Part shown: one piece after another, positions 15,214-36,478 of the stretch
Layout: each line of letters opens with the position of its first letter
Numbering within the stretch: the first letter of the stretch is position 1
The notes under the pieces: model-generated
What the model was told of the DNA's origin: nothing
Database searches by the model: none
Seen by the model: the letters and a program-made list of their open reading frames with translations, nothing else
Position numbers and translations under genes: made by a program
Assembly (NCBI GenBank): GCA_964363335.1
Contig: CAYIHW010000002.1
Coordinates: 1-36,524, forward strand
Source: an uncultured Candidatus Saccharibacteria bacterium
GTDB lineage: Bacteria > Patescibacteriota > Doudnabacteria > UBA920
Length of the DNA stretch: 36,524 nt
Direction: 5' to 3'

Positions 15214-18200
15214 ATGAAAAAAACTAAAAAATTTAAAAAAACTTCTCAAACAATTAAATCCGCGATTATGGACAAAGTCAAAATCAAGCGCGTAAAGCGC
15301 GAAAAGAAAAAAGTTAGCACGAAGGAAAAAATTCTCGCCGGTATTGGCGTGGGTTCCACGCTTTTGGGCGCGGCCGCGCCGTTCGCGCCAAAAACTTCCC
15401 AGACTCAGTTTGTCCGCACGCAGAGCGGGCAAAAAACTTCCACCGCGGCCGGTAAAGTGAAGGCGGCCTTGTCGCGGTTTTTTGGCGTGAGTACAGCCAA
15501 GGCCTCGGTTACCCGGGAATATTTAGACACTTTGGGCGCGGACGTAACGGCGGCCAAAACTGCCTTGGCGAGTTTTGACCAGTGGGTAACAGAGGCTACG
15601 GCGGACTCGGCTAATTTTGGCACTCAGGAAGAAACTGATGCTCGTCTGGCTGAAATTCAAGCAAAAGTAGACACTGAGCGCCCAAGTTTGGTGACAGCGC
15701 AAGAGGCGGCCGAAAGCGCGTACAGCAGCGCGGCGGATGAATTTATTATCCAACAAAAAGTACCTCCTCCGGCTCCTGCGGATACCGGCCCAAAGATTAA
15801 TGATGTAAGGAAAAATTCCGAAGGGTATAATGAAATATTTACCGGATCTGTCTGGATGTTACGAGACGGCCAAGAAAAATTAGTCAGTGGGACTTTATAT
15901 AGGAGCAGTAATGGCGTGTGGATAGAGCAGCAAGCAAGTGGCGGTGCCGTAGCTCATACTTATACTATTACCACCGGCGCTTCAAGTATGTCCGTAGACC
16001 AGGGTACTTGGGGAGGCATGACTTTTAACATAGTAGATGAAACCGGCAGTCCGGTTTCCTTGGTTGGCGCTTCGGCGCAGACCTCAAATAGTAATATAGT
16101 ATTGGCACAGATTGAGGGAGATAAAGTTGCTGTCCGGGGTATAAACGAAGGTGATGCTAAAGTAACAATTAGTTACGGCGGAACATCTGTCACTTTTAAT
16201 GTGACTGTAAATCAGGTCGCGGAAAAAGTTGTAGAGGAAAAAATTATAGACAATACTCCAACAGAAGGAGCAACTCAAACTATAGATGAGTTGCCTCAAA
16301 TTTTTCATAACAATCACTGGGTGGTTGTGTCAGGAAAAGAAGTTACCAACCCTAATACTTTTATTTATATTGCAGATGGCGAGGGCGGATGGACCTTAAA
16401 AGACGGACAAACAAAAACTGAAATTGGCGGGATTGTTTACGTATCAGCAAGCGGAGAATGGGTTCGCCAAAATACTAATACTCAAACCCCACCTCCTACC
16501 GCGGTTGCACCAAAAATTACAGCCGGTGATTTGCAAAATCTTGAGGTGTATAAATATGGGACCCAGCTGGCTTCCTATATTGGCGGAGGAGTTCAAAAAA
16601 CTGTCTACATTGGGGTAGGCGGCAAGCTGTATGATTTTAATGATAATTCATTATTGAATTTAACCGCGGAAGAATCCGCTTTAATTATTAATGCCATGGA
16701 AGCGCAGGTGCCGAACAAAGGCGGGGAAGTTTTGCATACTTATTCCATTAGCGCTTCTTCAGCAACGGTTAAAGCCGGCGCTAGTACGGAAGTTTTATTT
16801 ACAGTGACTGACGAATCCGGCAATATTGTAACCCCAAGCACCTCAAGAATTAGTGGAAATATGGCAACAGTTGCCTCCTCAGATTCTTCTATAGCGACCG
16901 TAGCAATAGTTTCCGGAAATAAATTGAAAATTTCCGGTGAGAGTGTTGGCACCGCTAATATTACCATTAATTACGGTACCGCTTCGGCCAATTTTGAAGT
17001 GATTGTGGAGGCTCCGGACAGTGTGGGGGCACCAGCGGCAATGGTTAATGCCGATGAATTGGAAACTCTGACAGTGTACCGTACGGAAAAAGGCTTAGCG
17101 GCTTATGTGGGAGGCGAAGTGAGGCAGACGGTTTATATCGGCGCGGATCAGAAACTGCATAATTTTGAAACCGACGCGGTTATTGAACTGGCTCCGGGGT
17201 CTTTGGAAAATATTCAAAAAGCTTTTACCGAACAGGCTCCGAAAGAAGGAGAAATTATTTCCGAATTTTCCATAATTTCCGCCGGGCAAAACAGTCTTCC
17301 GGCCAAGGCCGGCGATTACAGAGAATACCGTTTTCAGGTTATTGGCAATAAAGACCAAATACTGGACGCCGGAAATTATACTTGGAGTATGGAAGGCGAA
17401 CTGCCGCCGGGGATGGAATTTAACGCGGCCGATGCCGGAACAATTTTTGGCATACCCGCCGGCGAGACTGCCGGCAAGGAGTATAAAGTTACTGTAAAAG
17501 CAGATGATGGCACAACGGAAAAAACGGTTGAACTGACCATAAAAATTAGTTCAGCTGAGGCAGGAGTTGTGGCTACAATTGAAACAGTCATCGAAAAAGC
17601 CAAAATTACTCCATGGGCTGGTCTTACCGCGGAAGAAAAACAATTATTTACCGATTATTTTATAACATCAAGTCAAAATTTAGACAAGATCCCCTCAAGT
17701 TTTGCCCAAGAGAGCACTTTTGCCACGGCGCTGAAAGATGTTTTAGCGGCTAAAACTTTAATTAACGGCCTGCTGTATACTTTAACAAACGGAGTTTGGA
17801 CCGGCCAAGCGCCTGTTACTGTCGGGCAAGCAATTGGACAAGCCGCCTTTGCCAAAGCGGACGGTGCTTCGGCAACCAACATGAAAGTTGGCGATGTTTG
17901 GAAAATCAGCATTACCGGCGCTAAACCTAACGCCGAAGTAACGGTTGGAACCGAACAAGTATTGCCGAATGGGCAGAAAAAAGTCGGCATCCGCGTTTTA
18001 GGGACAACTGACGCGCAAGGACGGCTAACTGTTACAGACACCGTGCTAGCCGAGCATGTTGGCAATTGGGGTATGCGGATAAAAGTAGGCGGCCAGGATA
18101 TGGGCGTTGCCATAAATTTTGCCATTACCGCCCTTGCTACAAATGTTCCTTTTGATTCAGACAACATTTTAAAGAGCGGATGGAAAATTTACACGGTTAC

Positions 18201-21171: not shown

Positions 21172-21663
21172 CTAAGATACCGGAAACATTTTTTCTAAGT
21201 CATCAACTCGGTTTATATCTTTGACTTTTATTAGCCGGACAAAGAATCTTTTTGCCAACTGGTTGAATTCATCTTCAATATCCGCGTCCAGGGTAAAGGG
21301 CGATATCCAAATACTATTCTGCCATTTTTTAAAATGCAGCTGTTTTAATTTTGCCCGCAAAACGGCACGGATTTTTTTTTGTTTTTCCGGAATGTCAAAA
21401 ATAACCAGCTTCCACACCCCGTCTTTTTCCGGATTATTCCGCAAGAGTAATTTTTTACCATCGCCGGTAATTTTCGCCACTAATACGCCCACATCGCGCG
21501 TTTTTTCTACCAGTTCCAGCTTTTCCAGGCGGAACATAATGTTATAAAAAAATTTATAGGGCTTTTCCGGACAGGCGGCTTTATGGAGTCGTTTGTAATT
21601 CTCCGGATTTTTTTTCAGTAAGCCTAGAATTTTTATGGTTATGGGGTCAAATGGTCTGGACAT
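21172..21663 (-). CDS. PaaX-like transcriptional regulator (wHTH plus PaaX middle domain)
   Basis: The N-terminal winged-helix-like segment is followed by GVWKLVIFDIPEKQKKIRAVLRAKLKQLHFKKWQNSIWISP. This fits the PaaX-family pattern W..v.fdiPe..r..R..lr..L...gF..l..svWisP. Confidence 0.7.
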   Translation of the reverse strand: MSRPFDPITIKILGLLKKNPENYKRLHKAACPEKPYKFFYNIMFRLEKLELVEKTRDVGVLVAKITGDGKKLLLRNNPEKDGVWKLVIFDIPEKQKKIRAVLRAKLKQLHFKKWQNSIWISPFTLDADIEDEFNQLAKRFFVRLIKVKDINRVDDLEKMFPVS

Positions 21664-23191: not shown

Positions 23192-24469
23192 CTACCGAAC
23201 GTAGCTGTTTATTTGCTCATCGGCCAATTTTTTAGGAACAGCGTAAGCGAGCTGGTTAATTAGCCGAATTTGGAGGCCGTTTTGGGCTTGGGTTTCGGCG
23301 GAGGGAGGAAGGCTTATTCCGGAAAAGGCTTCGCTGGTCTTGCCGTCAATCATCAGTTTAATGTAAAAATTGAAACGCGGCAGGCCTAAAAAATCTTCTT
23401 TGGTCATGGGGTAAAATTCCGCTGACAACCTTTCGGCATCTTCAATCCCCACCTCAAACGCCACCATTGTGCCCACATTTCCTAAAATGGCGTTTTGGAT
23501 TTTTTCCGGCAGCTGCGCGAAGTACTGGTTAGTCAGGTGGATGCCAAGGCCGTATTTCCGCGATTCGGAAAGCAGGCTGGCAAATGTGTTGGTAATTAAA
23601 TTTTGAAACTCATCCACGTACAGATAAAACGGATATCTTTTTTCCTGCGGGGTGCTTGCCCGTTTAAGTACCGCCGCCTGAAGTTTGGAAATAAAAATCA
23701 AGCCGAGCATCTGGGCGTTAATTTCGCCAATTTTTCCTTTGGACAAATCCACCAGCAGAATTTTTTCCTGGTTTAATATCTGGTCAAAATTAAAAGCCGA
23801 TTTCCTTTGGCCGATTATATTGCGCATAAGCCCATTGTTCATAAAGTGGCCAAATTTTGAAGTAAAGTAGTTAAGCATTTCAGACTTATGGAAATCCGAA
23901 GTATTTGCCATCTGCTTTGTCCAAAAATCTATAACCAAAGGATCTTTTAGATACTTTCGCTTTTTGGCTTCAAAACGCTTATCCATAAATAGTTTGGGAA
24001 TTTCAATTAAGCTTCCGCCTTCGGGTCCGGCCATTACTGTTAACGCCGCGCATCTTAGCCAATGCTCAAATTGCGGGCCGATGATGCCTGTTTTTTCCGG
24101 ATCGAATAATTTGTAAAATATTTCAATGGTTTGCGCCACCAAAAAATCTTTTTCATATTCATCTTTTGATTCCAGAAGATTTAAACCGAATGAATATTCG
24201 GCATCCGAAGGGTCAAACAAAATTACGTCTTCCAGCCGGTTTTTTGGTATCCGTTCCAGAATCCACTTTATGGATTCGCCGTGGGGGTCAATAAAGCAGA
24301 CGCCGTGCTGGTTTAAAATATCCTGCAGGCACATATTTTGGAAAATGGTGGATTTTCCCACGCCGGTTTTACCCAGCATATACATATGGCGCAGGCGGTC
24401 GGCGTTTTTAAAAATTATAGGCGTTTGTTTGTCTCTAAAGATATTTTTACCAATGGTTATGTAAGGCAT
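23192..24469 (-). CDS. TraD/VirD4/TraG-like (FtsK-HerA superfamily) P-loop ATPase, soluble form
   Basis: The Walker A motif is MLGKTGVGKST, followed by CFIDPHGE. The Walker B motif is FYLYVDEFQNL, followed by SESRKYGLGIHLTNQYFAQL. This layout is typical of T4SS coupling-protein-type or DUF87-type ATPases. No N-terminal TM helices are present. Confidence 0.75.
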   Translation of the reverse strand: MPYITIGKNIFRDKQTPIIFKNADRLRHMYMLGKTGVGKSTIFQNMCLQDILNQHGVCFIDPHGESIKWILERIPKNRLEDVILFDPSDAEYSFGLNLLESKDEYEKDFLVAQTIEIFYKLFDPEKTGIIGPQFEHWLRCAALTVMAGPEGGSLIEIPKLFMDKRFEAKKRKYLKDPLVIDFWTKQMANTSDFHKSEMLNYFTSKFGHFMNNGLMRNIIGQRKSAFNFDQILNQEKILLVDLSKGKIGEINAQMLGLIFISKLQAAVLKRASTPQEKRYPFYLYVDEFQNLITNTFASLLSESRKYGLGIHLTNQYFAQLPEKIQNAILGNVGTMVAFEVGIEDAERLSAEFYPMTKEDFLGLPRFNFYIKLMIDGKTSEAFSGISLPPSAETQAQNGLQIRLINQLAYAVPKKLADEQINSYVR

Positions 24470-24480
24470 AGGCGCGGTTA

Positions 24481-24795
24481 TTAAACTTCAACTCCAAAAA
24501 ATTTTTGTTCAAAATAGTAAGGATTCAATACAAAAGAGTAATGGGATAAGGCTTCGTCTCTGGCATCTTGCCAGTTGAGCAGCTGCTCAAATTGCCATTT
24601 TTCGTTTTCCAGTTTTTCGCTGATGTCATTATAGAACTTCAGGCAAACCAAGGAGCGAATTTCCTCCAAGCGGTTTTTCCTGTCTTTGTAAATGGTTTCC
24701 ACTTCGGCTTTGGTAATAGAGCCGGCGCCGGTTTGCCCCTCTCCAATATCGGCAGTATGGGTTTCGGCTGGTTTTAAAGTTTCTTTTGTTTGCAT
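24481..24795 (-). CDS. hypothetical small protein (104 aa)
   Basis: The ORF is tightly packed between the two ATPase genes (4-nt and 11-nt gaps). No recognisable motif. Confidence 0.6.
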   Translation of the reverse strand: MQTKETLKPAETHTADIGEGQTGAGSITKAEVETIYKDRKNRLEEIRSLVCLKFYNDISEKLENEKWQFEQLLNWQDARDEALSHYSFVLNPYYFEQKFFGVEV

Positions 24796-24799
24796 AAAA

Positions 24800-26467
24800 T
24801 TAAGAAGCTAATAATTTTTGAGTAATTAGGTTTTCGCAAGTGGTCTCGACAAACCGCTTAACCGGCCTGGCTCCAAAACGGGGGTCGGACAAAGTTTTAA
24901 TTTTGCCGATTAAAATATTCTGATCAATTTTAAATTTTACTTTGTGCCTGGCCGCTCTTGCCTCAATCTTTTTAATTTCCAACTTTGCTACTTCCAATAA
25001 ATTCTGCTCTGTTAAAGGATTAAAAACTAAAATTGCGTCAAAACGGTTTAAAAATTCCAAACGAAAAGCGCCTGAAAGCGCCGGGATTAGTTTTTCTTGA
25101 AGGAATGCGTCGTCGTTCATGTCTTCTTGGCCGTTAAAGCCGTTAATAATTTCCGAAACGCCCAAGTTGGATGTGGCCATAATTATGGTCTGGGTAAAAT
25201 CAATTGTCTCGCCTTGGCCGGAGGTTAGGCGGCCATCGTCCAGAATCTGCAAAAATACGTCGAATATTTTGGAATGCGCCTTTTCTATTTCATCCAGCAG
25301 TACCAAGCTAAAGGGCTGTTGTTTAATGGCATTGGTCAGGCCGCCGCCGGCATCAAAACCCACATAGCCGGCCGGAGAACCTATAAGCCGGGCGACGGTA
25401 TGAGCTTCGGCGAATTCCGACATGTCAATCCGCACAAAACTTTCTTTTTTGCCGAAAACTTTTTCCGCCACCAGCTTGGCGGTTTCAGTTTTGCCGACGC
25501 CGGACGGGCCGAGGCATAAAAAGGAGCCTAAAGGGCGGTTGGGGTTTTTTAAGCCCAAACGCGCTCGTTTAATGGCAGAGGTTATTTGCGTTAAGGCTTG
25601 CCTCTGGCCGATTATTTTCGTATTCAATTCCGTCTCCAAATTGTTCAACAATTCTTTGTCGGAAATTTTTAGCTGCTGGAGCGGTACTCCCGTTTTGTCC
25701 GAGACTACCCTTAAAATATCTTCCTCGCTGATATTTTGAGAATTTTTTACTTGCGCTAAAGCCAAAGATTCATCGAGTATGGCAATTCCCGCGGCCGGAA
25801 GGTGTCCGAGAGCGGGAAAACGTTCCGCCAACTGAAGGATTAAATCCAGAGTATCCGCGCCGGCGGTTATATGAGTTTTTTTGTTAAACTTGTTTAAAGC
25901 CTGTTCTAATATTAATAGTTGTTCTTGTTTTGGCTGGGCTGTGATATTCAGCGTTTCAAAATAATTCAAAAAATTTGGCTGCTGGCTTTCCAGCCATTTA
26001 AATTCTTTGGACTCCAGGCACAGCATTAATTGGACTTTGCCGGTTTCAGCCAAGGGTTTGAGTAGTTGAGTTGCGTAGTTTAACGCCCACGGTTTATTGT
26101 GAACCAGTTGGCCAAAATCATCTATAAATAAAATACACTTCGGCAGGCTTTCCATCGCTTCTTTATATTTTTGCAAAGGTACCGGGCCGCTTGAATTTAA
26201 AGCGTCAAAACTTTCCGCTGACAGCGCGATAACGGGCGGTAATTTTTGGCCGCCGGCGTGGCCTGAGATTTGTTTAATCCAACCCAAGACCAGACTGGTT
26301 TTACCAACCCCGCTTGAGCCGACAATCAGGCAATTGTTATGAATGCGGCGGCCCAAGACTCTGCCCATTCTTGACATTTCATCGTGCCTGCCGACAATAT
26401 TTTCAAGCCGGCCGTTTAAAGCCTCTAATTTTAGGTCATAGTATGCGATTTTTGAAAATTCCGGCAT
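24800..26467 (-). CDS. Hsp100/Clp-family AAA+ ATPase (two rings, no N- or M-domain, degenerate D1)
   Basis: D1 has IVGRHDEMSRMGRVLGRRIHNNCLIVGSSGVGKTS (Walker A) but ILFIDDFGQL (DD instead of DE). D2 is canonical: IIGQRQAL, LGPSGVGKTE, LVLLDEIEKAH, ATSNLG, EFLNRFD. GGAGG lies 10 nt upstream of the ATG. Confidence 0.85.
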   Translation of the reverse strand: MPEFSKIAYYDLKLEALNGRLENIVGRHDEMSRMGRVLGRRIHNNCLIVGSSGVGKTSLVLGWIKQISGHAGGQKLPPVIALSAESFDALNSSGPVPLQKYKEAMESLPKCILFIDDFGQLVHNKPWALNYATQLLKPLAETGKVQLMLCLESKEFKWLESQQPNFLNYFETLNITAQPKQEQLLILEQALNKFNKKTHITAGADTLDLILQLAERFPALGHLPAAGIAILDESLALAQVKNSQNISEEDILRVVSDKTGVPLQQLKISDKELLNNLETELNTKIIGQRQALTQITSAIKRARLGLKNPNRPLGSFLCLGPSGVGKTETAKLVAEKVFGKKESFVRIDMSEFAEAHTVARLIGSPAGYVGFDAGGGLTNAIKQQPFSLVLLDEIEKAHSKIFDVFLQILDDGRLTSGQGETIDFTQTIIMATSNLGVSEIINGFNGQEDMNDDAFLQEKLIPALSGAFRLEFLNRFDAILVFNPLTEQNLLEVAKLEIKKIEARAARHKVKFKIDQNILIGKIKTLSDPRFGARPVKRFVETTCENLITQKLLAS

Positions 26468-26493
26468 AAACTTTTTGCCTCCATGTTGGGGCT

Positions 26494-26539
26494 GTTGCCA
26501 TATAGCATCCGCCCGAGGCGGATGAGCTTGTTTGGCAAC
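26494..26539 (-). promoter_or_regulatory. intercistronic stem-loop between the acidic-protein gene and the Hsp100 gene
   Basis: The outer 7-bp stem is GTTGCCA/TGGCAAC and the inner 8-bp stem is CATCCGCC/GGCGGATG (26506-26524). No U-tract follows on the minus strand. Confidence 0.5.
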
Positions 26540-26552
26540 AGTCCTATGTTAA

Positions 26553-29117
26553 TTAGACTGCTAATTCAAATTCGGGAATGTAAACTCTAGGAGTTTCATT
26601 TACTATTTCATCGCCGCCGGCAATTATCGCCGGCTTGGAGGTTAATATTTTATTTATCAGTTCCGCGGGCCTTAAAGGCAGAGAAGTTTTTTGTGAAAAT
26701 TTAACGGTTACCGGTTTCGCGGCCTGCCCATTAGGCGCGGGTTGGGGAATTTTAGAGTTAAATTTTAGAGTGTCGGTTGTTGCTCCGGCCGCGTTAAAAT
26801 TTTGCTTGGCTTGAAAAGCCGGAGCGGTTTTAAGCTGTTCCCGCGAAATGGCCGATGTAAATGCGCGCCGTATTGGCTCCATATAATGCCGGGCATGATT
26901 GTCATTTTTCGCGGATCTGTTTTTAACAACTTCAACTTCTGCCGATTTCGTTGCCGCTTGAGCGGGTTCTTTTGCCTCGGGCTTGGCCTCTAATATCCTC
27001 GCCGCGGTTTCGGCTGCCCCCCGATCGGTTTTACTGGCTTCCGGTTTGAAAATAGCCGCTTCCAATTTTTGCGGTTTTACTTGAATTGGCTGCTTAGTAT
27101 TTTTAGGTATTTGGCGCGGGTTATGCTCATGCACAGGGGGAGCGGGGATAGCTCTATTACTTTTTTCCGCGGATTTGACTAGCCGGATTGTTTCAATTCC
27201 AATACCAGAACCGTTTTCTTTAGAAATACCTGCTGATATTGGCTGTTTTGCCGCAGTTTCGTGCCTTTTATTGTCTTCTTTGGGTAAATACCCCGTAGCT
27301 CTGCTTCGGAGGTTCCCTGCAGTCCCTCCTCGCCCCGAGTGCATCCGAGGGGAGAGGATTGAGGTGAGGGTGCAGTTTGCATCTGCAGTTGATACCTCGT
27401 CAGCTCTGTTGCGAGGTATTTCATTTATCAGGATATCTTCGACTTGGGCTAGGGCAATGCCTTCGGGTCCAAATATTGATTTTTTAGCGGGCTTTAAATC
27501 TAATACGCTTTCATCCTCCCTGACCGTAGCGAGAGTTATATTTGCATCAATATTTATTTTTTCCGCAAATGCCAGCCGCGGTCTTAACGCCGCTTCCGAC
27601 CTCTTGTCTTCAATTTTGCGAATTATGGTTGGATGTTCCTTAAAAATTTCAATAATGTCCGGTTTAATTTCCCTGGCTTTTCCGACAAATTTTGTTGGCT
27701 CACTTTCCCCGTCGTCCATTAAAGATATGCCGGCAGTTTCAGTCAGTTTAACTGGCTGTTGCCGCGCGGGCTTCAAAATCGCCGTGATATTTGCTGGGGG
27801 TTCTGAAATTTCTTCTAATTCCAAGCCGCCAGCCAGCATATCAATCAACTCAATTCCGCCGGTTTTTTTCAATATTTCGGCTGTCGGTATGGTTACAGGA
27901 GACCGCGCCGCTTCAATAACCGCTTCCCTTTTAAATTCAAAAGTTTCCGTTTTGGTTTTGTCGCCGGCTGTCTCAAAATCATTGTCTGTCTCTTCGGCAA
28001 GACTAATGCCTTCAAGTGAGCCAGTAGCAGTGTTAATCTCGGCTCGCGAAAATGGGATTAATTCCGCCTGTTCTTGTTGGCCTGCGAAAATTTCATAGGC
28101 TGGCAATTCGGGGCGCGGTGCCAAAAAGTCCGGTTTTGGATTCGCCGCGAATGTTTTTGCAGGTTTAGGAATATTATCGGGCCGGCTTGCTTCAACTCCC
28201 GGCGTCTCATCGTCGTAGTCTCCAGTTTCAACGGCAGATGTTACATCCACGGACTGCTCCAAACTTAATAAAGTTTCAACAGGCGATAAATTTTTATCCA
28301 AGATTGTTAAAACTTCCGTCTGGGCGCCGGTCGTAATGGTTTTGTCCGAATTTGAATAACTATTATCAAAATTTCGCAGTTCAATTCCGCTTGGGCGCGC
28401 TTGGGTTTCGCCGGCAATGCTTTCCGCCTTGGCAGTTTCTTGGTTCCCGGCCGTCGATTGCGCGGTTAGGCTATTTTCCGCCTCGAAAATTTTAAAGTTC
28501 TGAGCCGGAAGAAGACCGCTGTCATTATAATCGCCGTTAAAAAAATCAAAAATTTCAGAAGGGGAAGCTATGGCTTCCGATTCGGTTTTAAGACTGTATA
28601 CCTCGTAGCTAATGTTGCCCTTTTCATCCGCGAAATATATTTCACGCGCCATCACATCGCTGTTCGGTTTTTGAAATTCCGACACAGAAAATCCTTGCGA
28701 GTAAAGATCTTCCAAAATTTGTCCTTGGCGCTCCGCGGTATCCCCGCCTCGCATGACAGAAGTTTCTTTGCCGCCTTCTTCTTTATATACCCATTCCTTA
28801 ACGCTTCTTTTTAAAATATCTCCGCCTGTAGAGACGGCGACTTTTTCCCAGCCCTCTGCAGAGCCTAAAGACTCAGCCACTTCCGCCAATGAACCAAATT
28901 GAAATTGCTGTTCCTGTGTTTTACCGTGTTGATCCTCGGGCCCTTCGTGTTTTTGACCCGCTTCCGAATTAACAACCTCTGAATTTATCTGTCGGCTATC
29001 CCACCGTTCGGCATCCGGTTTTTCAAGAACATCATCAACCTTCGAATCCTCAATGTGCAAAGATTCGTCTAAGTCATCTGCTGTTATTTCGTGCGTGGTT
29101 GTCTCCGCTGTTCGCAT
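26553..29117 (-). CDS. large acidic low-complexity protein (854 aa), function unknown
   Basis: Uninterrupted 854-aa ORF with GGAG 8 nt upstream of the ATG. It is E/D/T/A/P-rich and I recognise no motif. A 307-aa antisense ORF exists but is much shorter and has a biased composition. Confidence 0.7.
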   Translation of the reverse strand: MRTAETTTHEITADDLDESLHIEDSKVDDVLEKPDAERWDSRQINSEVVNSEAGQKHEGPEDQHGKTQEQQFQFGSLAEVAESLGSAEGWEKVAVSTGGDILKRSVKEWVYKEEGGKETSVMRGGDTAERQGQILEDLYSQGFSVSEFQKPNSDVMAREIYFADEKGNISYEVYSLKTESEAIASPSEIFDFFNGDYNDSGLLPAQNFKIFEAENSLTAQSTAGNQETAKAESIAGETQARPSGIELRNFDNSYSNSDKTITTGAQTEVLTILDKNLSPVETLLSLEQSVDVTSAVETGDYDDETPGVEASRPDNIPKPAKTFAANPKPDFLAPRPELPAYEIFAGQQEQAELIPFSRAEINTATGSLEGISLAEETDNDFETAGDKTKTETFEFKREAVIEAARSPVTIPTAEILKKTGGIELIDMLAGGLELEEISEPPANITAILKPARQQPVKLTETAGISLMDDGESEPTKFVGKAREIKPDIIEIFKEHPTIIRKIEDKRSEAALRPRLAFAEKINIDANITLATVREDESVLDLKPAKKSIFGPEGIALAQVEDILINEIPRNRADEVSTADANCTLTSILSPRMHSGRGGTAGNLRSRATGYLPKEDNKRHETAAKQPISAGISKENGSGIGIETIRLVKSAEKSNRAIPAPPVHEHNPRQIPKNTKQPIQVKPQKLEAAIFKPEASKTDRGAAETAARILEAKPEAKEPAQAATKSAEVEVVKNRSAKNDNHARHYMEPIRRAFTSAISREQLKTAPAFQAKQNFNAAGATTDTLKFNSKIPQPAPNGQAAKPVTVKFSQKTSLPLRPAELINKILTSKPAIIAGGDEIVNETPRVYIPEFELAV

Positions 29118-29150
29118 AAATCTAGCTCCGAAATTATCCCCCTTATATTT

Positions 29151-29174
29151 AAAAAACCGCCCACAAGCGGACGG
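29151..29174 (-). terminator. intrinsic terminator immediately upstream of the operon RBS (leader terminator)
   Basis: The minus-strand RNA reads CCGUCC-GCUUGU-GGGCGG followed by UUUUUU. The stem contains a U-G pair that would be an A-C mismatch on the plus strand. The hairpin ends about 33 nt before the ATG at 29117. Confidence 0.65.
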
Positions 29175-29477
29175 TAAAGTATTTTGAAAATTTAGTCCGC
29201 CAACTAACGGACCAAAATAAAATAATTCCTGCTCGGGATATTCGCCAAGTTGGCGAATTGCAAAATTTATTTAGCGACCAGACTTAGGATCACAGATACG
29301 CAGATAAAAAACAGATTACACAGATGAATGCATTACTGCAGTATCTGCGCTATCTGTGTCATTAGTGCATCAGTGATCAATTACTGTTGCGGCACAGTGG
29401 AGGAATTATCCCAGCCTTAGGCCGGGACTCACCTCGCTTCCCTAAATAAATTGAATTGTTAAATTACTGAAAGCTTA
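29151..29477 (-). ncRNA. about 330-nt structured leader RNA or sRNA (unassigned family)
   Basis: It is bounded by the consensus promoter and the leader terminator. Minus-strand helices include CCCGGCC-UAA-GGCUGGG (G-U pair valid only on the minus strand), a long imperfect hairpin over 29288-29378, a 9-bp palindrome AAUUCGCCAA/UUGGCGAAU, GUCCG/CGGAC, and a long-range pair AGGAAUUAU (29401-29409) with AUAAUUCCU (29222-29230). Confidence 0.5.
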
Positions 29478-29483
29478 TTTCAA

Positions 29484-29512
29484 ATATTACTACCTCGTAC
29501 TAAATCTGTCAA
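29484..29512 (-). promoter_or_regulatory. near-consensus sigma70 promoter (TTGACA-17-TAATAT) on the minus strand
   Basis: The reverse complement of 29507-29512 is TTGACA, the spacer is exactly 17 nt, and the reverse complement of 29484-29489 is TAATAT. The predicted transcription start is near 29477. Confidence 0.65.
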
Positions 29513-30244
29513 TGGAGAACCTAAATATGTTAAAAACAGTGTGGATAAGTAAATACTTTTCAGTTGCCTGATTTAAGGTTTTTGACAAAAGTCATGCAAA
29601 ATGGCATAAATTTTTTTTACAACAAAATATAATCAAATTAAAAATGGCTATATATAAGAGAGAATAAATACGTGCAACAAATTCTATAATTTTTTTAAAT
29701 TAAAATAATATAGCTTGTTTCACTTCAATTATATGCGCATTGTTCCATAAATTTAGGTTTTAAATACTTTTTATTTCATTTGAAAATAGCAGATAAAAAG
29801 TATATTGTATTTGAAATTCATTTAGTTTAAAAATTATTTGAGGAATTTATAAATTGTTTCAAAATAAATAGTTTTTAAAATAGCAATGTTTAACAAAAAT
29901 TCTCAAATATAATAATTCCTGAAAATTTTGCTTGCTAAAACAGTTAAAAATAAGTTTTAAAAATCCCCAGTAAATCGGCAGTATTTTTTGTATTAAATTT
30001 CAGTATTTTTTCAATAAAATGAAACATCCTGATAACTCAAATTAAAGCAGTTTGGGGCGTTTCATCGGCCGTGTTTTCTGTATAGAAATTTTCCTAAAAT
30101 TTTTAGCCATTAAATTTTAAAACAGATATAATGTATTTAGATATCGCGTATCCGATATATGGCAAAAAAGCCTAAAACTATAAGAAAATTTTAAAACTAC
30201 AATTTAAATATCGGATAGCCGAGTTTACAAATATACACTAAAAA

Positions 30245-33200
30245 GTGGACGAAACAGAAGAACAAAAAAATATCATTTCAAATATCCCTAAAGATCCCGG
30301 GCAAGACTTAACTTCCGGGGTAGGGTTTTTTGCGCCAAAAGCCATAAGCGAACCGGATGCAGTAAGTGAAGATTTTCTGTCACTTGCCGAAGCCGGAAAA
30401 GTTACCGGTTACCACCAAGACTATCTTGGCTTTTTATGCCGGACTGGTAAGCTTAAAGGTTTCAAGATTGGCAGAAACTGGGTTACCACTAACAGTGCGT
30501 TAGAAGAGTTCTTAAAAAATTACAAAAACGGCGTTTCCGAAATAACCGACGAGTCCGGCCGGAAAATCCAAGTCCATGTGGAAAATGTTAGACAGCAGGT
30601 AAGCCCGGTAAGTCAGAATGCAAAATTGCATACGCCTTCAACATTAAACCAGAAACCGGCGCCGGCAGTTTTGGCCAGTTCACAAATTAGCACGAACTCA
30701 GTCAGCCAGAGCCCGGATCAAATACTCCAGCTGACTAAATTGAAAAGAGAAATTTTTAACGAGTTAGAAAACCGAATTGAAAGTTTGAATTTAAACCTTT
30801 CCAAACTGGAAAATAAAGTAGCCGGCGCCAAAACCACTGAAGCCGTTTTAGAAGAAAAAGGTGTCAAAGATAAAAATGCCTTGGCGGAAAAGGTTTATAT
30901 TTTGCCTCCGACTGTTTCTCCAAGGTTTGAAAGAAATGAACTTTCAGAAAAATTCATTTCCAATTTCTCTTTGGATAAATTATCCGAGGACTTTAATGCC
31001 GCTCCTGTTGTTGCGCAAACAAAGTTTGCTTTGACTAAAGAAAAAGTTAAAGATTTATATAAGAGTTTTGCAGTTCCGCAGCAGAAAAATTTACCGGTGG
31101 TGTTTGCCAGCTTGGCAATTGCCTTGCTTGGGTTGGTAGGTTCTTTGCTCTGGTCCAATATTTCCACCCAAACTCAAGTTTCGCAAAAGCCGGATGTAAC
31201 GAAGTATGTGTATGAGCAGAAAGCAAATAGCATAGAGCATATAGCAGACAGCGAACAGAATGGCACAACAATTGTAAATAATAATATTGCCAACCAAGTA
31301 ATTAATAAAGTTTTGGGTTTAAGTGAATCTCAAGTTTATTCATTCATTGACCAGCGCTTAAATAAATATTTAGCGGAAGGAAAATTTAAAGGCGATAAGG
31401 GCGAGACCGGCGCGACAGGAATTTCCGGAACTTCCGGTGGCGTCTCTACTATTACTTACATTCAGCCAAATCCTTCCACCGGCAACGGTGGTGGCAGTAT
31501 GCTCGGCATAACATATTTGTCATCGCAAAACTTTACTACAAACAATGCCAGTGTAAATAATTTATTAACGGTCAGCGGGACGTCTAATTTTACCGGCGCG
31601 GTTACAATGTCCGGGCCGACAACTTTAAACGGCACTACGACCATTGCCAGTTTGAATGTTACAAACATCAACCCAAACTTTACGGCTGGCAGTGTAGTGT
31701 TTCAGGGCGCCAGCGGACTCGCTCAGGACAATGGGAATTTCTTTTATGACCAAACCAACAAGCGGTTTGGGATAGGTACTTCTACTCCGCTAGCGACGAT
31801 TACGGTGCAGGGCAGTCCGACATCCACGCCGTTGATAGTTGCTTCTTCCACTGGCGCAACGATGCTGTCTTTGCTCTCTGGCGGACAGCTGACCATTAAT
31901 ACTTCCTCGCCGCTTGGCAATTTGACCGTTAAACAAATTAACAATGGCGATACAATTTTTTACGCGCAAAGAAAGACGGACCTGGTTCCGGCCGGGGATT
32001 TTATAAATTACACCAACGCGGCGGGAACAAGTTTATTCAGGGTGGATAATGGCGGAAATATAACCGCACCGGGAGTTGTTACCTCCGGCAGTATGACAAT
32101 AACTTCCACTTCAACCCCGCAACTTACGGTTCAGTACGACGCGCAAAACCAGTGGTCGGCTTCCACCAGTCCGGGCGGCATAACCACTTTTGCGTTTAAC
32201 GGCACGTCCACGCCGTCGGCCGTTTGGTTGCCGCAAACCAACAGCGTGAACACTTTTTCTTTCCAGACCGCTTCGTCGTCCCCGGTTTTGTCTGTTGATA
32301 CTTTAAACCGCCGCGTAGGAATAAATATATCTACGCCACAGCAGACTTTATCTGTCATTGCCCAGGGCGCGGCCGATCCGTTTGATGTAGCTTCCAGTTC
32401 CGCCGGCTCTTACCTGCGCGTAACTGCTACGGGCAATGTTGGTTTGGGAACCACGACTCCGGGAAGCAAATTGGTCGTGGTTGGCAATGAGTTGATAACG
32501 GGCAATTCATCGGTCATCGGCAATTCAACAATTACCGGGGCCTTAACAGTAAGCGCGACTTCCACATTGGCCACAACCACAATTATCCAACTCACAGTTA
32601 GCGGACAAACTAATTTGGCCGGCGCTTCATCTACCGCGCTAACTGTAAGCGGTCCGCTGTTTGTAACGGGCACAACCCAGCTCGCCACCACCACGCTGAC
32701 GGTTTTAACGGCCAACGGCGCGGCGACTCTAAATTCCACGCTCACCGTAAACGGCGTTTCAACTTTGGCCACCACAACAATTGCGCAACTCACGGTTACT
32801 GGGAATTCATCAATCGGCGGAAATCAAACCGTCAGCGGCAACGCCACAACAACCGGCAGTCAGAATGTCGGGTCCAATTTAAGCGTTGGAGGAAATACAT
32901 CAATCACTGGCAACACTACAATCGGCGGAAACGCCACGGTAACGGGTAATTCCGTAATCAGCGGCAACCAGACAATCACCGGAACACTTGGCGTTACCGG
33001 GCAGTCTACTTTTGTGAATGCTTCAGCGACCAACGCCAGCATCAACAATAATTTTTATGTGAACGGACAAACTTCTTTGCAAAACGCTTCATCTACCGCG
33101 CTAACTGTAAGCGGGCCGCTGTACGTAAACGGCCAGTCCACATTAGCTACAACAACTATAAGCCAGTTAACGGTTTCCGCGTCCACGACTTTTTCAAGCC

Positions 33201-36200
33201 TGACACAAGGTTCAATTTTATTTGCCGGATCGGGCGGCGCGCTTAGCCAAAACAACAGCAACTTTTTCTGGGACAACGCCAATAACCGTTTGGGAATTGC
33301 TTCTGGTACGCCGGGTTACAATTTGTCGGTCAACGGCACTTCCAACATTACCGGTGCGGCGCTGTTTGGCGGTACGGTTAATGTGAGCGGCGCGGTCACC
33401 TTGGGCGGTAGTCTGGCCGTAAGCGGTTTGTCCAATTTGGCCACTTCCACCATTGCTCAGTTAACTGTTACCGGCAACGCCACCACCACCGGCAACCAAA
33501 TTATTGTGGGCGCGCTTAACGTGAGCAATGTTTCCACGCTGGCTACCACAACCATTGCGAACCTTACCGTTACCAACACCACCACGCTGGCCAGTAACAT
33601 AAATTTAACCGGCACGAATCCGGTTATAGATTTAAATACCGCCTCCACTTTAAATATCAACACTGCCAATAACCGGCCCATTACCACCGGCAGTGGCTTG
33701 TTCACTTTAGGCGGAAATTTGACGGTGCAGGGTACGGCTATTTCTTTGGCTTCGGGCAGTGTGATAGATACCGCGGGAGGCACGCTAGGCATTAACACCA
33801 CGACCAACCGGCCGGTAACTTTTGGCAGTGGCCTGACCACGTTCGGCGGCAGTATTTTGGTTACGGGCAACGCGACCACCACGGCCAATCAAATAATTTT
33901 GGGAAATTTGTCTGTTGCCGGAACTTCCAACTTGGCCACTACGACAATTGTGTTGCTGACAGTCACTGGGAATTCCCAGGTTAATGGAAATGCCACCATA
34001 ACCGGTAATTCCGTAATCAGCGGCAACCAGACAATCACCGGAACACTTGGCGTTACCGGGCAGTCTACTTTTGTGAATGCTTCAGCGACGAATGTTTCTG
34101 TTAGCAACAATTTGAATGTGGTAGGCCAGTCAACGTTCGCGAATTCCTCAACAACCAACGCGACAATAAATAATAATTTTAATGTAATTGGTCAGACAAC
34201 TTTGGCCAATGCTTCGGGCACTTCGCTTTCCTTGTCGTCAAATCTCTACGTGTCAGGCCAGTCGAGCCTGGCCACCACATCGGCGACACAGCTTACCGTT
34301 ACGGGAACATCCACACTCGCGAATTTAACTGTGAGCGGGCCAACATTATTCTCCAGCCTTACTCAAGGCAGTGTGCCGTTTATTGGCGCAAACGGACTGC
34401 TTTCGCAGGACAACAGCAACTTCTTCTGGGACGTTACCAACAAGCAATTAGGCGTTGGCACTAAAACGCCGACATCAACTTTATTTGTGCAGGGTAGCGG
34501 CGCGGTAAATCCGTTTGTGGTGGCATCTTCCACAGGCACACAGCTGTTTTCCATAAATACTTTTGGCGCGGCGCTGTTTAATAATCAGGCCGGAGCGGCA
34601 GGGACAATTTTACAGAGCAACGGTTCCTCGGCCAGCCCGACCTGGATTTCAACTTCCACGCTTGTGGGTGGCTTGGCTTATGTGCAGGGCGGCAACAGTT
34701 TTGGCGCCACGGCCACGCTCGGCACCAACGACAACAATCCTTTAAATATCCGCACCAACGGCGCTACGGCTATGACTATATTAGCAAACGGCAACGTCGG
34801 CATCGGGACGACGAGTCCAGGGGCGAAGTTGCAGATTTATCCGAACGCTAACACGACCAAAGGGTTAATTGTGCAAGGGGACAATAACGGTTCAGCAAAT
34901 GTTCAAGAATGGCAAACTAGTGCGGGAACGGTGCAGGCAAAAATTTATCCAACTGGAGGTTCTGGCGGAATGTCATTTGGTGTTTATGACGGATATAATA
35001 ATCTAAGTGGCATTACAGATATTGGCGGGGGCAGCTATGGGCTTAAGCTCACCAATTCAGGGGGCAACCTAAGTGTTGTCTTAGGTGGCGTTATAACGGC
35101 ATCGAACTACATTATGCAACCTTTGGGCATCGGTTATTCTGACCCTGGGACAGCGAAATTAGCAATAAACGGCAACGTCGGCATCGGGACGACGAGTCCA
35201 GCGGATAAACTGGATGTGAACGGAGGCATAAGAACTAATAGCGGATTTATTCTTAATACGACTGGCAATAGCCAAGTCTCGAGCGCAGGTATCTTACAAC
35301 TTTATGGTACGAATACTAAATTGCGATTCACCTATCCATCGGTTAATGATATTGATTTTGCAATTAACAGTTCAGGAAATCTAGGAATAACCGGCGGCAA
35401 CGTCGGCATCGGGACGACGAGTCCTGGTAGTAAACTTGATGTCTGGGGAAATTTGAATGTCGCGACATCGTCTAATTCCACATTGTTTGTAAAAACTGCC
35501 CTTTCCAGAGTAGGAATAAACACATCCACTCCAGCCTCCACTTTTGTTGTGGCCGCCAACTGTGCCGGCATTACCGGAAATCCCGGGTCCTGTTCCGACT
35601 ATGCCGAACTTTACCCTTCAAGCGAAGACGCGCAAGCCGGCGACGTGGTGGTAATTGATACTTCGGCTGTCGCTACTGCCGTCAGGTTAAGTACTTCTTC
35701 TTATGACTCTAATTTATTGGGAGTGGTTTCCACTAATCCGGCCATGGTTATTGAAGGCAACTCCGTGCAGTTTATGAATGGTAACTACCAAAACAATCCG
35801 CGCCATCCGGCTATTGCCCTGGCAGGAAGAGTGCCGGTTAAAACAACCAACGAAAACGGCAACATTAAACCCGGAGATTATCTTACTTCCTCGGCTAAGC
35901 TCCCTGGATACGCGGCTAAAGCCACGCGCGCCGGATCGGTGATTGGCCAAGCGCTGGAAAGCTTTAATTCATCTTTTGCCAATGCCACCGGCACGGTTAT
36001 GGTATTTATCAAACTAACGCAATATACGCCTAAAGTTGCGGATTTATTGCAAACCGGGATAAATTCTGATGAGCAGGTGTGGCTCCAGTCTTTGACTAAC
36101 CTGAATATGACCAATGCCGCGGTGTTTGGGGACATTGCGGTGCAGGGGAGCGTAGCCGTGCAAAAAGATTTACATGTGGGCGGGGTAATTTATGGTGCGG

Positions 36201-36478
36201 AATTAATTGCCAACACAGTCACAGCCAAAGAAAAGCTTTGTGTGGGACAAACTTGTGTAACTGAAGATCAGCTAAAGGCTTTATTAAAACTCTTGGAGGG
36301 CGGGCAGGGGAGCGTAGCGGGTGCTGCTACCGAACCTCCGGCACCGGTTGTAGACCCGCCGGTTGATGCTCCGCCTATTGTTGAACCGTTAATTATTGAA
36401 CCTACACCAAGCGAGTTGCCACCGACGGAAGTTTTACCGATTACACCGCCTGAACCAATTCTTGCGCCAGCAGAATAA
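30245..36478 (+). CDS. giant membrane-anchored fibre protein (2077 aa): N-terminal excisionase/MerR-like HTH, coiled coil, TM helix, collagen-like triplets, beta-helical repeats, tail-fibre / Peptidase_G2-like C-terminal module
   Basis: LSLAEAGKVTGYHQDYLGFLCRTGKLKGFKIGRNWVT is HTH_17-like (about 30374-30520). The TM helix is LPVVFASLAIALLGLVGSLLW (about 31091-31162). GDKGETGATGISGTSG is collagen-like. Long T/S/G/N repeats follow (LTVSG..., NATITGNSVISGNQTITG) with GNVGIGTTSPG x3. CSDYAELYP...GDVVVID...LGVVSTNP resembles the phage tail-spike Peptidase_G2-type module. The tail is Pro-rich. The start is a GTG with no clear SD. Confidence 0.85.
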   Translation: MDETEEQKNIISNIPKDPGQDLTSGVGFFAPKAISEPDAVSEDFLSLAEAGKVTGYHQDYLGFLCRTGKLKGFKIGRNWVTTNSALEEFLKNYKNGVSEITDESGRKIQVHVENVRQQVSPVSQNAKLHTPSTLNQKPAPAVLASSQISTNSVSQSPDQILQLTKLKREIFNELENRIESLNLNLSKLENKVAGAKTTEAVLEEKGVKDKNALAEKVYILPPTVSPRFERNELSEKFISNFSLDKLSEDFNAAPVVAQTKFALTKEKVKDLYKSFAVPQQKNLPVVFASLAIALLGLVGSLLWSNISTQTQVSQKPDVTKYVYEQKANSIEHIADSEQNGTTIVNNNIANQVINKVLGLSESQVYSFIDQRLNKYLAEGKFKGDKGETGATGISGTSGGVSTITYIQPNPSTGNGGGSMLGITYLSSQNFTTNNASVNNLLTVSGTSNFTGAVTMSGPTTLNGTTTIASLNVTNINPNFTAGSVVFQGASGLAQDNGNFFYDQTNKRFGIGTSTPLATITVQGSPTSTPLIVASSTGATMLSLLSGGQLTINTSSPLGNLTVKQINNGDTIFYAQRKTDLVPAGDFINYTNAAGTSLFRVDNGGNITAPGVVTSGSMTITSTSTPQLTVQYDAQNQWSASTSPGGITTFAFNGTSTPSAVWLPQTNSVNTFSFQTASSSPVLSVDTLNRRVGINISTPQQTLSVIAQGAADPFDVASSSAGSYLRVTATGNVGLGTTTPGSKLVVVGNELITGNSSVIGNSTITGALTVSATSTLATTTIIQLTVSGQTNLAGASSTALTVSGPLFVTGTTQLATTTLTVLTANGAATLNSTLTVNGVSTLATTTIAQLTVTGNSSIGGNQTVSGNATTTGSQNVGSNLSVGGNTSITGNTTIGGNATVTGNSVISGNQTITGTLGVTGQSTFVNASATNASINNNFYVNGQTSLQNASSTALTVSGPLYVNGQSTLATTTISQLTVSASTTFSSLTQGSILFAGSGGALSQNNSNFFWDNANNRLGIASGTPGYNLSVNGTSNITGAALFGGTVNVSGAVTLGGSLAVSGLSNLATSTIAQLTVTGNATTTGNQIIVGALNVSNVSTLATTTIANLTVTNTTTLASNINLTGTNPVIDLNTASTLNINTANNRPITTGSGLFTLGGNLTVQGTAISLASGSVIDTAGGTLGINTTTNRPVTFGSGLTTFGGSILVTGNATTTANQIILGNLSVAGTSNLATTTIVLLTVTGNSQVNGNATITGNSVISGNQTITGTLGVTGQSTFVNASATNVSVSNNLNVVGQSTFANSSTTNATINNNFNVIGQTTLANASGTSLSLSSNLYVSGQSSLATTSATQLTVTGTSTLANLTVSGPTLFSSLTQGSVPFIGANGLLSQDNSNFFWDVTNKQLGVGTKTPTSTLFVQGSGAVNPFVVASSTGTQLFSINTFGAALFNNQAGAAGTILQSNGSSASPTWISTSTLVGGLAYVQGGNSFGATATLGTNDNNPLNIRTNGATAMTILANGNVGIGTTSPGAKLQIYPNANTTKGLIVQGDNNGSANVQEWQTSAGTVQAKIYPTGGSGGMSFGVYDGYNNLSGITDIGGGSYGLKLTNSGGNLSVVLGGVITASNYIMQPLGIGYSDPGTAKLAINGNVGIGTTSPADKLDVNGGIRTNSGFILNTTGNSQVSSAGILQLYGTNTKLRFTYPSVNDIDFAINSSGNLGITGGNVGIGTTSPGSKLDVWGNLNVATSSNSTLFVKTALSRVGINTSTPASTFVVAANCAGITGNPGSCSDYAELYPSSEDAQAGDVVVIDTSAVATAVRLSTSSYDSNLLGVVSTNPAMVIEGNSVQFMNGNYQNNPRHPAIALAGRVPVKTTNENGNIKPGDYLTSSAKLPGYAAKATRAGSVIGQALESFNSSFANATGTVMVFIKLTQYTPKVADLLQTGINSDEQVWLQSLTNLNMTNAAVFGDIAVQGSVAVQKDLHVGGVIYGAELIANTVTAKEKLCVGQTCVTEDQLKALLKLLEGGQGSVAGAATEPPAPVVDPPVDAPPIVEPLIIEPTPSELPPTEVLPITPPEPILAPAE
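32945..33030 (+). repeat. 86-bp perfect intragenic direct repeat, copy 1
   Basis: Identical base for base to 34004-34089 (ggtaattccgtaatcagcgg...gcttcagcgac). Confidence 0.95.
34004..34089 (+). repeat. 86-bp perfect intragenic direct repeat, copy 2
   Basis: Identical base for base to 32945-33030. Confidence 0.95.
34789..35424 (+). repeat. three identical 30-nt segments (cggcaacgtcggcatcgggacgacgagtcc) encoding GNVGIGTTSP
   Basis: The copies are at 34789-34818, 35170-35199 and 35395-35424, and were read directly from the sequence. Confidence 0.9.

Follow-up and report, generated by a model that had tools for sequence, protein, structure and literature searches.

The DNA examined here, hereafter the window, is a stretch of 36,524 nucleotides (nt; contig CAYIHW010000002.1 of assembly GCA_964363335.1) from an ultra-small Patescibacteria bacterium of the candidate phyla radiation (CPR), recovered from Hainich groundwater metagenomes. 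Its minus strand carries a leader of ~327 nt, counted between its predicted ends from promoter start to terminator end, which precedes a four-gene cassette spanning 23192-29117. The first gene (26553-29117) encodes an acidic, largely disordered protein of 854 amino acids (aa) without a family match, and is followed by genes for a 555-aa ClpB/ClpA-like double AAA+ protein devoid of N and M domains (24800-26467), a 104-aa protein (24481-24795) and a soluble VirD4/TraD/HerA-like ATPase of 425 aa (23192-24469), the second and fourth being recognised by domain search. Judged from comparison with its relatives, the leader is a real, conserved cis-regulatory RNA, namely a member of the cobalamin riboswitch clan (Rfam CL00101), and it is very probably a compact kissing-loop cobalamin riboswitch that most likely switches off transcription of the downstream cassette. 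Its membership in the family follows from alignment, and we infer the ligand itself.

Architecture of the leader

The leader begins with a sigma-70-type promoter on the minus strand (29484-29512), composed of a -35 box TTGACA at 29512-29507, a 17-nt spacer and a -10 box TAATAT at 29489-29484, from which transcription is predicted to start near 29477, ~25 nt upstream of P1, the conserved closing helix of the aptamer. Promoters of the form TTGACA-N16-18-TAnnnT also lie 44-80 nt 5' of P1 in several relatives, cited here and below by locus label (L011, L172, L175, L176, L180 and L181). At the other end, an intrinsic terminator (29151-29175), made of the stem ACCGTCCGCTTGTGGGCGGT (written ACCGUCCGCUUGUGGGCGGU in the list of parts) and a T-run (U-run in the RNA), predicts a transcript 3' end near 29151; terminator-like sites around the leader number 5, against 1.4 expected. 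The start signals of the first gene (29115-29129), a Shine-Dalgarno GGAG at 29129-29126 and the ATG at 29117, were read from the sequence and the open reading frame (ORF). No sizeable ORF was found inside the leader, and a search for RNA sequencing runs that contain the region returned none. Its GC content is 0.38-0.48, as opposed to 0.15-0.31 in the upstream spacer, and the 333-nt leader RNA folds at -113.8 kcal/mol, compared with -77.9 +/- 4.9 kcal/mol for shuffled sequences (z = -7.36), none of the 100 shuffles equalling it.

Much of this had been anticipated by an earlier sequence-only reading of the same DNA. The promoter with its 17-nt spacer, the terminator hairpin and U-run ahead of the ribosome-binding site (RBS) of the operon, the GGAG and ATG located 3' of that terminator, and the higher GC content of the leader are all present as it described. 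Its proposal of a cis-regulatory, riboswitch-like architecture is borne out as well, since a dedicated promoter, an aptamer and a terminator before the start codon are all seen.

Identity of the aptamer

The window copy by itself gives no match at the Rfam gathering thresholds. The sub-threshold family with the lowest E-value, in a search of a 381-nt stretch, is RF00174 Cobalamin (15.5 bits vs a threshold of 31.5, E = 0.077), a partial alignment in which the conserved core aligns. Leaders of relatives, by comparison, exceed the gathering thresholds of three families of the kind: RF01689 in L091 (40.1 bits), L012 (40.6 bits), L172 (42.0 bits) and L033 (46.1 bits), RF01482 in L181 (67 bits), L179 (60.5 bits) and L182 (58.2 bits), and RF00174 in L180 (52.2 bits). 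The threshold-passing leaders of L091, L012, L172, L179, L180, L181 and L182 all precede the same four-gene cassette. The shortfall of the window copy is attributable to two insertions, a hairpin in L4 and a 96-nt P6. In addition, a single-sequence nhmmer search returned weak matches (E = 0.18-3.3) in L091, L093 and L011, each directly 5' of the first gene of the cassette. The leaders at these matches share a core order of P1, GGGAAG, P4 capped by the loop GUGA..AAUUCC, ACUGUGCCGCAAC and a variable P6, continued in the 3' part by AGUC.G..GC, the return strand of P1, UCC-CGAGCA-GGA and a terminator.

The view in the sequence-only reading that the leader belongs to no known family has thus to be given up, because its orthologues score above Rfam gathering thresholds and each helix of the window copy can be aligned with theirs. 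A match to a known Rfam family, which that reading had named as evidence against its own proposal, exists in substance through the orthologues, although the window copy itself is sub-threshold. The string GAGGUGAGUCC, which had been likened to CR-I of RNase P, is the GGGAAG-nGAGGUGA core of the cobalamin aptamer, and the resemblance is coincidental. It is hardly conceivable that the leader is some different leader or non-coding RNA, such as a T-box, a protein-dependent attenuator, an RNase P RNA, a transfer-messenger RNA (tmRNA) or a retron RNA. Its length and extensive structure, the GAGGUGAGUCC string and a long central hairpin could be taken to suggest one of these, but an Rfam search to E = 10 gives no match to these families beyond chance level, and the cobalamin model accounts for every conserved feature. 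The matches to RNase P, T-box and the small RNA families MicF, RyhB and Hrs13 were at chance level and terminator-driven, and no tmRNA or tRNA-like RNA was found. A retron msr/msd, considered for the long central hairpin and flanking repeats, was rejected, there being no reverse-transcriptase domain in the cassette proteins or in the other window ORFs scanned.

The cobalamin-type aptamer of the window covers 189 nt of the minus strand (29264-29452), as delimited by two alignments of relatives (A4 and A7, described below), by covariation and by the partial Rfam alignment. P1 (29452-29442 / 29274-29264), which co-varies in relatives, encloses the junction GGAAG (29441-29437), P4 (29436-29432 / 29403-29399) with L4 of the form UGA..AAUU, the P5-L5-P5 element (29396-29388) with its loop GCC at 29393-29391, P6 (29386-29384 / 29281-29279), and a B12-box-like segment AGUCUGGUCGC (29284-29274), with J6/3 at 29278-29275. 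The junction sequences GGGAA, GGUGA..AAUUCC (L4), ACUGUGCCGCAAC and the B12 box AGUC.G..GC are all found in the window at 29441-29274; their columns are invariant or nearly so in A4 and A7 and align to the Rfam consensus. Every consensus pair tested in the window copy is a standard pair, and imposing the family structure on the window RNA places it only 3.4 kcal/mol above the minimum-energy fold.

The insertions that set the window copy apart are found at sites that vary in its relatives. A 21-nt hairpin, GUCCCGGCCUAAGGCUGGGAU (29408-29428; -14.7 kcal/mol alone), is situated within L4 between GGUGA and AAUUCC, and the same site holds insertions of 17-148 nt in L093, L176, L133, L173 and L175. 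The L4 flanks UGA and AAUU are kept in the window copy with the hairpin between them. P6 carries a variable extension of 96 nt (29285-29380), an imperfect long hairpin (-38.3 kcal/mol alone); among relatives, the distal part of P6 ranges from 1 to 96 nt without sequence conservation. It is because of this extension that the Rfam models and the covariance model described below split the window match. Further downstream, the linker J1/13 forms a hairpin, GCAAUUCGCCAACUUGGCGAAU (29240-29261; -9.5 kcal/mol), which has a counterpart in L091, the linkers of other relatives being short, and a second spacer hairpin, UUUGGUCCGUUAGUUGGCGGACUAAA (29191-29216; -12.5 kcal/mol), lies between P13 and the terminator and is not conserved in relatives.

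A long-range closing helix joining 29401-29409 with 29222-29230 had also been proposed from the sequence. The 9-base-pair (bp) complementarity exists, but the conserved closing helix is P1 instead. Its two segments belong to the 3' side of L4/P4 and to the 3' strand of P13 and would pair over 13 bp when wobbles are included, with an energy of -11.5 kcal/mol in the window, -7.6 kcal/mol in L176 and -7.5 kcal/mol in L175, the latter two likewise bearing L4 insertions. For most of the remaining ten leaders, the complementarity is close to that of shuffles, so it is not a feature of the family. In the window copy it may represent an alternative ligand-free fold, or chance.

Covariation and the kissing loop

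Covariation was assessed in the leaders of relatives, a check that the sequence-only reading had recommended for orthologous operons, and both conservation and covariation were found. The alignment A4 comprises 13 distinct leaders, from which the L4 and P6 insertions and the linker were excised by hand, with N as a placeholder for single-base length differences; A7 is a core alignment of 26 sequences. In A4, 85.7% of cells are paired as against 73.2% in shuffles, 20 pairs have changes in both partners, and covariation scores 0.406 vs 0.166, with 0 of 500 shuffles as high; when the partners are slid, pairing falls to 31-49%. In A7, the corresponding values are 88.9% vs 73.2% for pairing and 0.447 vs 0.147 for covariation, again with 0 of 500 shuffles as high. 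The middle pair of P6 in A7 occurs as UA in 12 sequences, GC in 10, AU in 2 and CG in 2, the P4 pairs show four pair types each, and P13 has co-varying pairs at three loop-proximal positions. Covariation in both the 13- and the 26-sequence sets therefore supports P1, P4, P5, P6, P13 and the L5-L13 kissing loop. The window's own population is represented by ten contigs (L001-L010), which are more than 99.9% identical to it and for that reason useless for covariation. The MAFFT alignments A1-A3 were out of register in places and gave way to A4 and A7, and the covariance-model alignment A5, in which several P13 loops were mis-registered, was not used for counts.

The covariance model R1, built from A4, finds 15 additional copies outside the seed, in other CPR loci. 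Minus-strand copies found with R1 include those at 20676-20755 in L095, 19920-20014 in L036 and 8399-8488 in L051.

The kissing interaction of class II cobalamin switches joins L5 to the L13 loop of a hairpin further downstream; it requires that L13 be presented on a stem-loop, and it leaves one or more L13 purines unpaired (PMC5028336). The window has such a hairpin, P13, with the sequence UCC-CGAGCA-GGA (29227-29238, minus strand) and its loop CGAGCA at 29235-29230. The P13 motif is conserved in all 13 leaders that were parsed through P13, and L13 is CGAGCA in 21 of 26 sequences, with a co-varying variant in the rest. The window L5, GCC, can pair with G2, G4 and C5 of this loop, leaving A3 unpaired. 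The pair between the G of L5 and the C of L13 is G:C in 21 sequences of A7 and A:U in 4, the latter being L179 and L182 (ACC with CGAGUAA), L045 (ACC with CGAGUCA) and L056 (ACC with CGGGUGA), which belong to two lineages. Outside A7, L031 combines an L5 of UUC with CGAAUAA.

Expression platform and proposed switch

Two types of expression platform are found among the CPR copies. In type (a), represented by L057, L136, L123, L133 and L031, the 3' strand of P13 is itself the Shine-Dalgarno sequence (AGGAG), with AUG 5-8 nt later, which is a known class II arrangement (PMC5028336). In type (b), which includes the window lineage, L033, L036, L048, L118, L109, L152, L045 and L056, P13 is followed by an intrinsic terminator containing a segment that can base-pair with the L13 region, and changes in one are accompanied by changes in the other between lineages. 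The L13 region CCCGAG is matched by CUCGGG of the terminator in most type (b) copies, GAGCAGG by CCGCUU in the window, L093 and L181, CUCGAGUA by UACUCGAG in L182, UCGAG by CUCGA in L045, and CGGGUGA by UCACCCG in L056. The terminator 5' arm CCGCUU(G) can thus pair with GAGCAGG of L13/P13 as a putative antiterminator. The duplex between the P13 core and the terminator beats the shuffled-terminator mean in 13 of 13 leaders (mean z = -2.5), and a window RNA truncated ahead of the terminator 3' arm has GAGCAGG paired with CCGCUUG in its minimum-energy fold.

A mechanism drawn from comparative evidence only may be proposed for the window copy. The RNA would begin ~25 nt upstream of P1, and the aptamer (29452-29264) would fold P1, P4, P5 and P6 around the conserved junctions GGGAAG, ACUGUGCCGCAAC and AGUC.G..GC, tolerating both the L4 hairpin insertion and the long P6 hairpin. 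With B12 bound, L5 (GCC) would pair with L13 (CGAGCA, its A bulged) and lock P13; the terminator (29175-29151) would then form, RNA polymerase would halt ahead of the RBS and the operon would be off. With no B12, the weak P13 would open and GAGCAGG would pair with the terminator 5' arm CCGCUU(G); the terminator could then not form, and the operon would be transcribed. The OFF direction of the switch is a prediction of the same kind.

Whether the ~327-nt terminated transcript also acts in trans as a small RNA concerns an additional role, not an alternative to the switch, and such a role is very improbable. Some riboswitch-terminated transcripts do act in trans, and with its own promoter and a strong terminator the short RNA would dominate in the B12-replete state; however, no conserved single-stranded seed is visible outside the riboswitch elements, and the spacer hairpins are not conserved. 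The stand-alone small RNA offered as an option by the sequence-only reading found no support in the analysis.

Observations that weigh against the assignment

Several observations speak against the leader being a kissing-loop cobalamin switch. The window copy is under every Rfam threshold, and R1 recovers it in two pieces only, 29370-29445 at 24.6 bits and P13 at 13.4 bits, being unable to span the 96-nt P6 insertion even with filters off. The 21-nt hairpin might disturb the tertiary contact made by L4, the window's own antiterminator duplex is modest relative to shuffles (z = -1.1), and the A:U variant of the kissing loop is limited to the two lineages mentioned. Moreover, the alignments underwent manual trimming, in which insertions and linkers were excised and a few N placeholders and single loop bases taken out, and many sequences are related, so that the shuffle controls overstate significance. 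Finally, the window contains no homologue of nrdJ, pduO, DUF4430 or DUF6580 and no recognisable B12 gene.

Part of this could be read as decay, in which the insertions abolished B12 binding and left a cobalamin-like aptamer re-purposed as a constitutive attenuator or as a sensor of another ligand or factor. The Rfam score of 15.5 bits and the insertion inside L4 would fit such a history, and the window-specific 13-bp complementarity between L4/P4 and P13 (-11.5 kcal/mol) could trap another fold. On the other hand, all core pairs and junction nucleotides are kept, five other lineages with insertions at the same two sites keep the core, and the family structure costs only 3.4 kcal/mol over the minimum-energy fold. 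A decayed or re-purposed aptamer is accordingly regarded as improbable, and the cobalamin riboswitch remains the favoured interpretation.

Comparison with known cobalamin riboswitches

As a cobalamin riboswitch, the leader is most readily compared with RF01689 AdoCbl-II (formerly AdoCbl-variant; class II, e.g. env8HyCbl), with which it shares the compact four-helix core, the GGGAA junction, the GUGAAAUUC L4, the short P5, and an L5 that forms a kissing contact with the loop of a downstream P13 hairpin, where a purine of L13 stays unpaired. It differs in its 21-nt L4 hairpin and 96-nt P6, in that the RBS is not in L13, the 5' arm of a downstream terminator competing for the L13 region instead, and in that L13 is CGAGCA in most members of the CPR group. 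RF01482 AdoCbl and RF00174 Cobalamin belong to the same clan, CL00101, and have the core motifs in common, whereas the window group is without the conserved P7-P11 peripheral domain and the P6 of the window is a plain variable hairpin. The translational class II switches of L057, L136, L123, L133 and L031 have the same aptamer and P13/L13 (CGAGCA-GGAG); in these, P13 supplies the Shine-Dalgarno sequence with its 3' strand and no terminator is present, whereas the window lineage keeps P13 and adds a terminator and a separate RBS. As far as alignment tells, the kind of riboswitch is known, and the leader described here is an insertion-bearing copy of it missed by standard thresholds.

The putatively regulated cassette and its neighbourhood

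The same four-gene order is found in every close relative, in differing genomic neighbourhoods. ATPase homologues at 68-91% identity bear the names of CPR groups (Doudna-, Magasanik-, Falkow- and Pacebacteria), and the VirD4-like protein has no PDB sequence match at E <= 0.01. The protein of the first gene, 600-1021 aa in overall length, consists of a conserved N-terminal domain (~aa 50-200), a long, acidic, variable middle and a conserved C-terminal segment of ~90 aa. No Pfam, NCBIfam, PADLOC or PDB sequence match was obtained for it, and a word-index search with its N-terminal domain returned no match; an exhaustive search of 1.84 billion representative proteins retrieved no more than 31 clusters with that domain. 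The AlphaFold model of this domain is confident and alpha/beta, with a pLDDT of ~90 or more over roughly residues 31-140, and comparison of the model with PDB folds gave nothing significant (best E = 0.045, TM below 0.3). In the window's own population, the 854-aa gene is called in L001 as two ORFs of 616 and 193 aa, and in L004 as short fragments; the split ORFs are population-level frameshifts or assembly variants.

Upstream of the riboswitch promoter, a spacer of ~0.7 kb (29520-30245; 15-32% GC) with several promoter-like sites on both strands separates it from a divergent plus-strand ORF of 2077 aa (30245-36478). This ORF has weak BspA-type leucine-rich-repeat and HTH_17 matches, and contains an internal direct repeat of 107 nt at ~95% identity (32927-33033 and 33986-34092). 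Elsewhere on the minus strand of the window, 21172-21663 encodes a 163-aa protein with a PaaX_M / Cas2-like domain, whose homologue in the syntenic relative L181 (3070-3591) directly precedes the riboswitch and cassette there. L181, which is the closest syntenic relative, also has an Rfam group I intron match of 72.8 bits at 15227-15532 on the plus strand.

B12-related genes in relatives

The cassette of the window has no known B12 function, and it is in relatives that genes tied to B12 are encountered. L033 and L118 have, in succession, nrdJ (class II ribonucleotide reductase), the riboswitch, DUF4430, DUF6580, a PduO-type adenosyltransferase, a protein of ~155-165 aa and a VirD4-like protein of ~790 aa. 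DUF4430 is reported as the domain also present in transcobalamin-type B12 binders (PMC4350170). In loci of the L045 type, nrdJ and pduO come before the riboswitch, which is followed by a protein of 600-840 aa, a protein of ~150 aa and a VirD4-like protein of 782 aa; the 600-840-aa protein has no family match where scanned and is acidic in L045. In L109, pduO comes after the riboswitch, and in L175, NrdR, NrdJ and CobA/BtuR come after the cassette.

Overall, nrdJ and/or pduO share a locus with the riboswitch in at least 14 loci. The riboswitch copy of L095 is upstream of the DUF6580 gene and that of L036 is between nrdJ and pduO; classical B12 genes are therefore likewise under the control of this aptamer type. 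The VirD4-like ATPase of other CPR lineages has a form of 780-790 aa, for which a membrane helix at the N terminus is predicted in L045 and L033, and a VirD4/TraD-like ATPase is tied to B12 genes and the same riboswitch in L033, L045, L048, L056, L057, L109, L118, L133, L136, L152 and others. The pair nrdJ-pduO also adjoins the VirD4-like gene in loci that give no riboswitch match to the model. A literature search yielded no paper on a cobalamin riboswitch in Patescibacteria/CPR or on one tied to VirD4-like genes, and nothing relevant on DUF6580.

Implications for CPR bacteria

With respect to the RNA, the locus illustrates that what appears to be a genuine riboswitch can escape standard annotation: the score of this copy is halved by two insertions specific to its lineage, while eight orthologues are above threshold. 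The locus is, in addition, a comparative example of a kissing-loop B12 switch that seems to be wired to a terminator instead of an RBS.

To our knowledge, CPR bacteria do not make B12, and many of them carry a B12-dependent ribonucleotide reductase. The position of a B12 riboswitch ahead of the ClpB-like/VirD4-like cassette in many lineages suggests that the encoded proteins have a part in obtaining or handling B12, an idea on which the literature searched gave no paper. It is possible, though this is a tentative reading to which we give rather less than even weight, that the riboswitch marks a previously unrecognised cobalamin acquisition or handling system in CPR/Patescibacteria, built on a type IV coupling protein-like ATPase and turned on only when B12 is scarce. 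Such a system would employ, in some lineages, a membrane-anchored ATPase of 780-790 aa beside nrdJ, pduO, DUF4430 and DUF6580, and in the window a soluble ATPase of 425 aa that would team with the ClpB-like unfoldase, the ~100-aa protein and the fast-evolving acidic protein. The ClpB-like/VirD4-like cassette, which may be under B12 control, is the interesting lead here.

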